Positions 2,292 to 3,920 of a stretch of DNA of 64,000 nt are shown here, piece by piece. The position numbers and the translations under genes were made by a program. The first letter of the stretch is position 1. Each line of letters starts with the position of its first letter. The notes under the pieces were generated by a model. The model was not told the DNA's origin. It saw only the letters and a list, made by a program, of their open reading frames with translations, and searched no databases. Origin of the DNA: Candidatus Gastranaerophilaceae bacterium (GTDB lineage Bacteria > Cyanobacteriota > Vampirovibrionia > Gastranaerophilales > Gastranaerophilaceae); NCBI GenBank assembly GCA_041678605.1, contig JBAYNW010000001.1:13947-77946 (forward strand). Reading direction: 5' to 3'.

Positions 2292-3920
2292 ATGCAGTAC
2301 AATTCAATTAACTATGTGCCAAAAATAGAACCTGACAGTCTGGAAGTGCTTTCTTTGATTTACACGCCGGGCGTCGGGCATGCGTGTATGAAAATTAAGG
2401 AACAGGCGGGGCTTTCTTACGTTTATACCAACCGTGAAAATTCCGTTGCGGTTTTGTCCTTTGATTACGAAAAATCTCTCAAGCGGGCGATATTCCTAAA
2501 AAGTACGCTTAATATTGACGCATATCCGTTTGAAGCCAATATACCCTCCCCCCTTGAGGGTGAGCGAAGCTCTGGTGGGGAGCTTCAAGGTGTAATCAAA
2601 CTAGTAGTTGAAAATATTTCCCCAAATTTTTGCGGAATTGACTTGACGCTGATTACAGATGAAGTAAAAAATATTGAGTTTGATGTCGAAATTCCTGTTT
2701 TGAAAAGCACTTGTGCCGGAAATACCCCCCACCCCAACCCTCCCCCTCAAGGGGGGAGGGAGCAAACCGCGGCCGTTGAACCTATTCCAAAATCGGGTGT
2801 CGACATAATGGATTTTTTCAAACCATTTTCAAAAAATATTTTTCAATTTGATATAAATCAGCTTGAGGGTGATTTTAAAGAGCAGGCACTTTATTTAAGA
2901 GAAAAGGCAGGCGGAGTGATTGAAAGCCAATTAAGCGAAGAACCTTTCGTTTACCCTCCTGTTGCGATAATTTCTGACGGCTCGGCCGTGCTGGGGTTTG
3001 GAAATATCGGTCCGGAAGCCGGTCTTCCCGTGATGGAAGGGAAGGCAGTAATTTTCAAATCACTCGGTGGCGTAAACGCAATACCGCTTTGTCTTAAAAC
3101 CCAAAAATCCGGGGAAATAATAAAAATTGTGCAGGCTTTAAAAAATTCTTTCTCAGGCATAAATCTTGAGGATATTTCTGCACCAAGATGTTTTGACATT
3201 GAAAAGGAATTGATTAAAACCCTTGATATTCCCGTATTTCATGATGACCAGCATGGAACTGCGATTGTTGTTTTGGCAGCACTTTTGAACTCACTTACTC
3301 TTGCAAAGAAAAAGATTGCCAAAGTAAAAATAGTTTTTTCAGGTGCAGGAGCGGCAGCACAGGCGGTTTCCAAATTACTTATGAAAGCAGGGGCGAAAGA
3401 TATAATCCATGTTAATAAAAACGGAATAGTTAACGAAAACTCCGCTCAGGGAGATAATTATCTTAAAGAGTTAGCCAAAGTGACCAATAAAGAGGGTTTG
3501 GAAGGAAAACTGGAGGATGCACTTAAAGGAGCTGATGTTTTTATCGGGCTTTCGGCAGGTGGAGTTTTGAAGTCGGAATTTATCAAACAAATGGCCGAAA
3601 GCCCGATAATCTTTGCTCTGGCAAACCCGACTCCTGAAATCATGCCAAATGAAGCAAAGGCGGCAGGGGCATTTATTGTAGCAACCGGTCGGAGTGATTT
3701 TGATAACCAGATTAACAATTCACTCGTTTTTCCCGGACTATTCAGAGGGGTTTTGGATAACGGGATTAAAAAAATCACGGACGAAATCAAACTCGGATGT
3801 GCAATCGCACTTGCCTCGCTTATAAAAGACGAGGATTTAAGCCCGACAAACATCTTGCCGAATGCACTTGACCCGAGAGTTGTTTTGGCGGTTGCAAGCC
3901 GATTGGCTGAGTTTACCTGA
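2292..3920 (+). CDS. NAD(P)-dependent malic enzyme (short type) with a 169-codon insertion
   Basis: Motifs [81 protein letters not shown] and NNSLVFPG. Confidence 0.85.
   Translation: [542 protein letters not shown]

Follow-up and report, generated by a model that had tools for sequence, protein, structure and literature searches.

Some homodimeric enzymes have become single-chain pseudo-dimers in which one of the two active sites was lost; the 100-kDa hexokinases are one example, and eukaryotic S-adenosylmethionine decarboxylase, set beside the Thermotoga enzyme, is another. Here we describe a malic enzyme gene that, judged by comparison with its relatives, goes back to an ancient fusion, head to tail, of two malic enzyme genes and has since been reduced. 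It lies in a 64,000-nucleotide stretch of DNA, hereafter the window, from a Candidatus Gastranaerophilaceae bacterium (GenBank assembly GCA_041678605.1, contig JBAYNW010000001.1, positions 13,947 to 77,946 of the forward strand). Like the known pseudo-dimers, its product would go back to a dimeric enzyme that was duplicated and fused and then lost one site asymmetrically; unlike them, its surviving site would be composite across the two halves, its dead half appears to have been trimmed stepwise, and there are living intermediates for each stage.

The small prokaryotic malic enzymes and the malic enzyme domain of MaeB (1VL6, 5CEE, 2DVM, and 6ZN4; PMC7902834) have the same fold, catalytic motifs, and Tyr-bearing N-terminal helix as the window protein. 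They are homodimers of 370- to 440-aa chains with two swapped active sites: the dimer is tight, the catalytic site is built from residues of both protomers, and the catalytic tyrosine sits on the N-terminal helix that the opposing monomer swaps in (Harding et al. 2021, PMC7902834). In the window protein, by contrast, the Tyr-bearing arm and the body would come from different halves, with a 125-aa dead remnant and two repeat-encoded loops between them. Double malic enzymes of ~840 aa, annotated “NADP-dependent malic enzyme”, share its lineage of origin and its crossed pattern of motif loss (described below); they retain the first body whole, NAD-binding domain included, whereas the window protein keeps only part of the first N-domain.

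The two loops recall a different kind of system, the Rickettsia palindromic elements (RPEs), reportedly described by Ogata et al. in 2000. As in that system, the repeats of the window are short dispersed palindromes that lie in frame inside conserved protein genes and fall in low-confidence loops of a structural model; at about 37 nt, however, they are much shorter, and they are G+C-rich in a genome of 37.6% G+C. The RPEs are covered in a review (PMC10969869). A further likeness, to repetitive extragenic palindromic (REP) sequences and REPINs, is that the genome carries Y1-transposase genes, which makes mobilization by a REP-associated tyrosine transposase (RAYT) a candidate mechanism.

The malic enzyme gene and its history

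The malic enzyme open reading frame (ORF) occupies positions 2292-3920 of the forward strand and encodes 542 aa without an internal stop; it is the single malic enzyme gene of the 1.77-Mb, 97%-complete genome. By its domain profiles and motifs, the product is a malic enzyme of the small prokaryotic type (PF00390, 97 bits against a cut-off of 23.1; PF03949, 84 bits against a cut-off of 23.5). Its catalytic residues, Y24 (YTPGV), K251 (MEGK), E293/D294 (NLED), D318/D319 (HDDQ), and the G351-A356 stretch (GAGAA), are all present and are invariant in 120 orthologs, a set of proteins with 67-78% BLASTP identity, typically about 496 aa long, obtained from a search of 5.8 billion proteins. All of the sequences compared in this study derive from metagenome assemblies.

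The original prediction, made from the letters of this stretch, held that the enzyme is interrupted by an in-frame block of 169 codons at 2454-2960, and this was confirmed. The canonical sequence stops after NSVAV (2453) and restarts at VAIISDG (2961), leaving 507 nt between them, in frame and without a stop; by our own arithmetic, a random frame of 169 codons would stay open at the G+C content of this genome with a probability of about 7e-6. Domain boundaries, proposed along with the prediction as a check on it, place the Pfam malic N-domain in two pieces around the block, at residues 10-52 (profile 10-53) and 194-307 (profile 38-181), followed by the NAD-binding domain (Malic_M) at residues 322-525. 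In Foldseek comparisons, the solved enzymes 1VL6, 5CEE, and 2DVM superpose in one stretch of ~320 columns, equal in length to residues 224-542, with 1VL6 and 5CEE matched at E about 1e-36 and 49-51% identity. Because the N-domain falls in two pieces and the superposition is single, we regard both ends of the interruption, at 2454 and 2961, as real.

Pairwise searches revealed little about the origin of the block: when the insert was compared by BLASTP with the remainder of the window protein, no active-site match appeared, and the sole match (E=0.002, to a stretch of the NAD domain) was judged spurious; a Pfam scan of the insert alone returned no match. Profile comparisons were more telling. 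Against 77 canonical malic enzymes, hhalign matched the relic at E=1.7e-8 with a family-level profile and at E=1.6e-17 with an order-level profile; the canonical profile came from a search of genome contigs for related loci, which yielded canonical malic enzymes of other phyla and none from the organism's own lineage. The relic segment ending in IPV pairs with canonical KAxLFK..VDAFP..PTFGGINLEDI..IPVF, and a second N-terminus within the block pairs with canonical ALxLHxxxxGKIEV (E=1.2e-3 at family level and 3.2e-10 at order level). The three resemblances to malic enzyme that had been proposed for this block are therefore real, in the register in which they were read, and an intein, an intron, or a foreign inserted domain was rejected as its identity, as the block is homologous to malic enzyme itself.

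The relatives form a graded series. Malic enzymes of the window's own order are either 483-545 aa or 673-732 aa long, and in the longer frames, which come from other families of the order, the N-domain is matched twice. The first part of these ~700-aa forms has an intact LSLVYTPGVG arm, a damaged, recognizable N-domain, and a C-terminal remnant, with the core of the NAD domain (about 138 aa) absent; the second part is a complete malic enzyme with a decayed Tyr motif, e.g., FYSPEK. Copies 1 and 2 of these forms align in collinear blocks, the N-domain at E=4e-26 and the C-terminal part at 9e-15. Frames of 844-889 aa with two complete bodies are found in other orders of the class (L111-L115 and L122), and double enzymes of ~840 aa carry the NCBI labels Vampirovibrionales, “Cyanobacteria bacterium”, Armatimonadetes, NC10, and Nitrospinae, of which those under the first two labels cluster with same-class genomes in the tree. 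Among the matches listed from a 201-genome sample of the phylum there was no two-match ORF; these matches comprised frames of about 465-490 aa, resembling the ACT-domain fusions of two families of the class, and single matches in ORFs of ~760 aa, taken as hybrids of malic enzyme with PTA. The large double-enzyme family (L111-L115, L122, and P0121-P0240; ~840-890 aa) is apparently undescribed, and our literature search found no paper on fused or double malic enzymes or on their reduced descendants. Other families of the class (L116, L117, L119, and L120) encode malic enzymes of ~490-500 aa with an N-terminal domain that, read by eye, is ACT-like; these group with the canonical single enzymes and, despite their similar length, have no relation to the forms that bear the relic.

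In a tree of the enzyme bodies, the copy-1 bodies all group together (support 97). The window's order contributes 17 bodies, which cluster as one clan (100); its sister is the copy-2 clan (91), and the active body of the window protein is accordingly read as a descendant of copy 2 of the fusion. The clan of shorter forms (93) excludes the ~700-aa forms, whose position at the base of the order the tree does not resolve.

Aligned with these relatives, the window ORF can be divided into parts. Residues 1-54 (2292..2453) are the copy-1 arm, with the catalytic-Tyr motif IYTPGVG, of which Y24, T25, P26, G27, V28, and G29 are invariant across the 120 orthologs. Residues 55-138 (2454..2705) correspond to the copy-1 N-domain, collinear with copy 1 of the ~700-aa relatives and alignable by hhalign with canonical enzymes; this 84-residue relic appears as a beta-alpha-beta-alpha-beta remnant from which the glycine-rich stretch, the MEGK motif (now LKR), and the HDDQHG motif are gone. 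Two repeat-bearing blocks lie at 2541..2585 and 2706..2789. The order-wide alignment and hhalign assign 2790..2960 to the copy-1 C-terminal remnant (residues 170-190) and the copy-2 N-terminal helix and strand (residues 195-215); of the copy-2 arm, the first helix and strand remain and the part with the Tyr motif is deleted. Finally, residues 224-542 and the stop (2961..3920) make up the copy-2 catalytic body, N-domain and NAD-binding domain together, with all catalytic motifs intact. The window protein thus has one body and a remnant of the first, and not two full bodies in one frame.

The simplest history would be one ancient duplication of the whole gene with fusion of the copies, followed by stepwise trimming of copy 1. 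Full double enzymes of about 840-890 aa, surviving in other orders of the class, would represent the first stage; the ~700-aa forms of other families of the order have lost the copy-1 NAD domain; and, in the window's family, the first copy is cut to about 125 aa. The original prediction had proposed an internal tandem duplication. The part of that proposal that stands is that the block descends from a self-duplication of malic enzyme with the frame kept; the duplication was neither local nor recent, but of the whole gene and ancient, since it is common to the order, to other orders of the class, and to metagenome-assembled genomes labeled as other phyla.

Around the gene, the upstream order of rplS, a ylqF-like GTPase gene, and rnhB is conserved between the window and one ortholog genome (L108:4550-6205). 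The 3' neighbor in the window is ffh, on the opposite strand, and in L108 the gene for an ATP-dependent phosphoenolpyruvate carboxykinase is next after the malic enzyme gene. Many own-family genomes that are 96-99% complete (relatives G001-G005, G013, G015-G021, and many of genus g38) have no malic enzyme, suggesting that the gene is dispensable in much of the family.

Crossed decay and selection on the relic

We compared the catalytic motifs of the two copies in 100 double malic enzymes. In copy 1, every arm (100/100) retains the Tyr-motif residues Y, P, G, and V, while the body has another residue in place of the first HDDQ Asp in 100/100 and retains the Lys in 81. Copy 2 shows the reverse: all catalytic residues of the body are present in 100/100, and its arm keeps the Gly in 23/100 and the Val in 3/100. 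The same crossed decay, with arm 1 and body 2 intact and body 1 and arm 2 degraded, is seen in seven ~700-aa forms. Such a pattern is predicted by the trans geometry of the catalytic tyrosine in the small enzymes, if only the site formed by arm 1 and body 2 has been retained. Taken together, this geometry and the crossed motif pattern lead us to infer a single-chain pseudo-dimer for the window protein, with one composite active site to which the old first copy would contribute Tyr24 and the second copy K251, E293, D294, D318, and D319; the relic would be kept as a scaffold, or platform, that positions the Tyr arm. The first body of the double enzymes retains its NAD-binding glycines, and may serve as a regulatory pseudo-enzyme half.

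The full-length AlphaFold2 model (pLDDT 88, pTM 0.88) gives the relic an ordered fold, with predicted strands at 51-56, 76-81, and 115-117, helices at 59-73, 95-112, and 119-125, and pLDDT above 90 outside the loop; a helix at 195-206 and a strand at 210-215 are also predicted.

The original prediction further held that one copy was decaying, and here the orthologs contradict it. About 125 of the 169 block residues are present in all 120 orthologs, the remaining ~43 constituting two variable blocks, and the invariant positions include R65, F68-L69-K70, D76, N108, C114-G115, D117, P178, S180, R203, G207-G208, and E211. The proportion of nonsynonymous differences (pN) is 0.075-0.22 in the relic and 0.105-0.25 in the catalytic body, and in most ortholog pairs the relic value is at or below that of the body; synonymous sites are saturated between orthologs, and dN/dS of the relic is about 0.06-0.1. 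Purifying selection on the relic is as strong as on the catalytic body, and the relic is no decaying pseudo-copy at present.

Palindromic elements in the gene and across the genome

The two repeats noted in the original prediction are where it had placed them, with cores at 2544-2560 and 2725-2760, and they are copies, in opposite orientation, of one genome-wide palindrome family. Block 1 (2541..2585, about 15 extra codons) contains a degenerate G+C-rich copy in reverse orientation, and block 2 (2706..2789, 28 extra codons) a forward copy with 36/37 identity to the family consensus by BLAST, whose hairpin, CCCTCCCCCTCAAGGGGGGAGGG, has a predicted RNA folding energy of -21.8 kcal/mol. Relative to the element-free ortholog locus L109, the gene is longer in the DNA alignment by 45 nt at site 1 and by 84 nt at site 2. 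Both blocks fall in low-confidence loops of the relic as modeled: mean pLDDT is 71 for the ten-residue blocks covering residues 81-100, and values below 50 are found at residues 89-92 and 142-167. The element borders showed no clear target-site duplication.

Insert content varies among the 120 orthologs: 81 have no insert at either site, whereas an insert occupies site 1 alone in 26, site 2 alone in 5, and both sites in 8, so that site 1 is occupied in 34 and site 2 in 13. Several different palindrome types occur at site 1, and two alleles with near-identical flanks (one mismatch) differ wholly in their site-1 content. On a tree built without the columns of the inserts, parsimony requires at least 27 changes at site 1 and at least 13 at site 2, and well-supported sister pairs (P0005/P0018, P0067/P0112, and P0065/P0114) are unlike in insert content. 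In the 700-aa and 850-aa relatives examined, the aligned stretch contains no element peptide. Since two thirds of the close orthologs have the conserved segment with no insert at either site, the proposal that the repeats mediated the duplication is refuted by the test set out with the prediction itself; the comparison places the elements later than the duplication and without a part in it.

The family consensus, CCCCCCACCCCAAACCCTCCCCCTCAAGGGGGGAGGG, has 64 BLAST hits in the 1.77-Mb genome, and by our reading five of its six frames are stop-free. Copies lie in frame in the genes for malic enzyme, asparaginase II, KdpA, BirA, a tRNA methyltransferase, a lyase of the aspartase/fumarase class, and MurF, making this a dispersed, multi-copy palindrome within conserved protein genes; inverted doublets occur in asparaginase II and malic enzyme. 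Two ORFs of the Y1-transposase family (PF01797), at G000 C2:15831-16193 (-) and C11:47622-47969 (+), of 178 and 183 aa and with HxH and YIHYNPVKHG motifs, are RAYT-like and are candidate mobilizers of the palindrome on circumstantial grounds. The elements may have spread in a REP/REPIN-like manner, possibly by way of these two genes, and selection would leave alone only frame-preserving copies in tolerant loops. We found nothing relevant in the literature on palindromic elements in Melainabacteria or Gastranaerophilales.

Further copies or half-copies were found by BLAST in the window at 834-866, 952-964, 55003-55078, and 62492-62507: one lies just upstream of rnhB, one in the rnhB N-terminus, and the others in ORFs of 415 and 467 aa. 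Outside the window, the BirA ORF (454 aa; G000 contig C36:6701-7229) is interrupted in frame, between the catalytic domain and BPL_C, by a complete DUF559 endonuclease-like domain (PF04480, E=3e-38), which is bracketed by one reverse and three tandem forward palindrome copies. The window also holds dense mosaics of 7- and 8-nt tandem repeats (GTGAGAC, GGGAATT, CCTTTCAG, and AAGTGATT) in fixed order and on both strands, at 12885-13040, 19719-19892, 39025-39220, 43484-43710, 45041-45220, 46429-46845, and 47187-47600.

Alternative explanations and implications

We considered whether the insert could instead be the product of a recent internal tandem duplication through the two repeats, with one copy now decaying neutrally. 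The insert is truly self-similar to the downstream N-domain, and the repeats flank part of it; however, the segment is conserved in all 120 orthologs, most of them free of inserts, longer homologous forms extend across the order and class, and the low dN/dS speaks for constraint, so that this account is highly improbable. That the elements are themselves selected features, such as flexible linkers, translation-tuning RNA hairpins, or strain-variable surface loops, rather than tolerated selfish DNA, would fit their strong hairpins (about -21 kcal/mol), their recurrent gain and loss at the same two sites, and the mutual inversion of the copies. Yet two thirds of the orthologs do without them, many unrelated element types occupy site 1, the same family is found in many unrelated genes and in intergenic DNA, and the hairpin energies are unexceptional against shuffled sequences (z about -1.5); we think such a role quite unlikely.

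Two further alternatives concern the function of the relic. It could be retained as a regulatory pseudo-enzyme module, for effector binding or oligomerization, beyond its part as a scaffold. Its conservation equals that of the catalytic body, and copy 1 of the double enzymes keeps GxGxxG, the Lys (81%), and most metal ligands, with one Asp lost in 100/100, a pattern typical of ligand-binding pseudo-enzymes; in the window's family, though, the nucleotide-binding domain and the glycine-rich stretch are gone, so that little pocket is left, and we know of no effector. We hold this to be possible, though doubtful. It might also be that the N-terminal arm acts in cis with the downstream body, the 169 residues being a looped-out inserted domain and the protein no pseudo-dimer, as could be read from the single body-length stretch that Foldseek aligns. 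Trans pairing predicts the crossed decay of the double enzymes and cis pairing does not, and the solved small enzymes have the Tyr helix in the opposing protomer (PMC7902834), making an arm in cis unlikely.

Several of our observations weigh against the reading that we prefer, i.e., the remnant of an ancient fusion, with crossed decay, a putative pseudo-dimer, and a later layer of palindromes. With profiles from the 120 close orthologs alone, the hhalign match is weak (E=0.01-0.03; Neff 1.8, a shallow set), and the homology of the block to malic enzyme rests on intermediates from relatives, as self-similarity inside the narrow lineage is weak. Modeled alone, residues 1-232 have a pLDDT of 41 and no fold, which fits either dependence on the body or merely an alignment of 16 sequences; and the placement of Tyr24 at the active site of copy 2, and of the relic where the partner protomer would sit, is a prediction from the motif pattern and from the geometry of the small enzymes. 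The counts of insert changes depend on a FastTree protein tree in which many forks have weak support and could be inflated by recombination between strains, and G+C-rich palindromes can be misassembled in metagenomes. No element directly flanks either RAYT-like gene, the nearest copy being 1.2 kb from one of them. Taking these points into account, we estimate a probability of roughly 80% for the preferred reading as a whole.

If this reading is correct, the lineage would document naturally, step by step, how the subunits of a central metabolic enzyme were fused, degenerated reciprocally, and were trimmed, and it would yield a direct prediction for the structure, in which a dead scaffold holds a Tyr arm that acts in trans. 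It also points to a widespread family of ~840-aa double malic enzymes, annotated simply as “NADP-dependent malic enzyme”. We lean, by a little, towards a broader generalization, in which the lineage preserves every stage from a domain-swapped homodimer to a single-chain enzyme with a composite site, and the loops of the scaffold then became hot spots for harmless, repeated insertion and exchange of REPIN-like palindromes. For the gut-type relatives of the cyanobacteria, the elements would mean, with consequences for annotation and for the recognition of real insertions in proteins from metagenome-assembled genomes, that short palindromic repeats are tolerated within housekeeping proteins, in parallel with the RPEs of Rickettsia.

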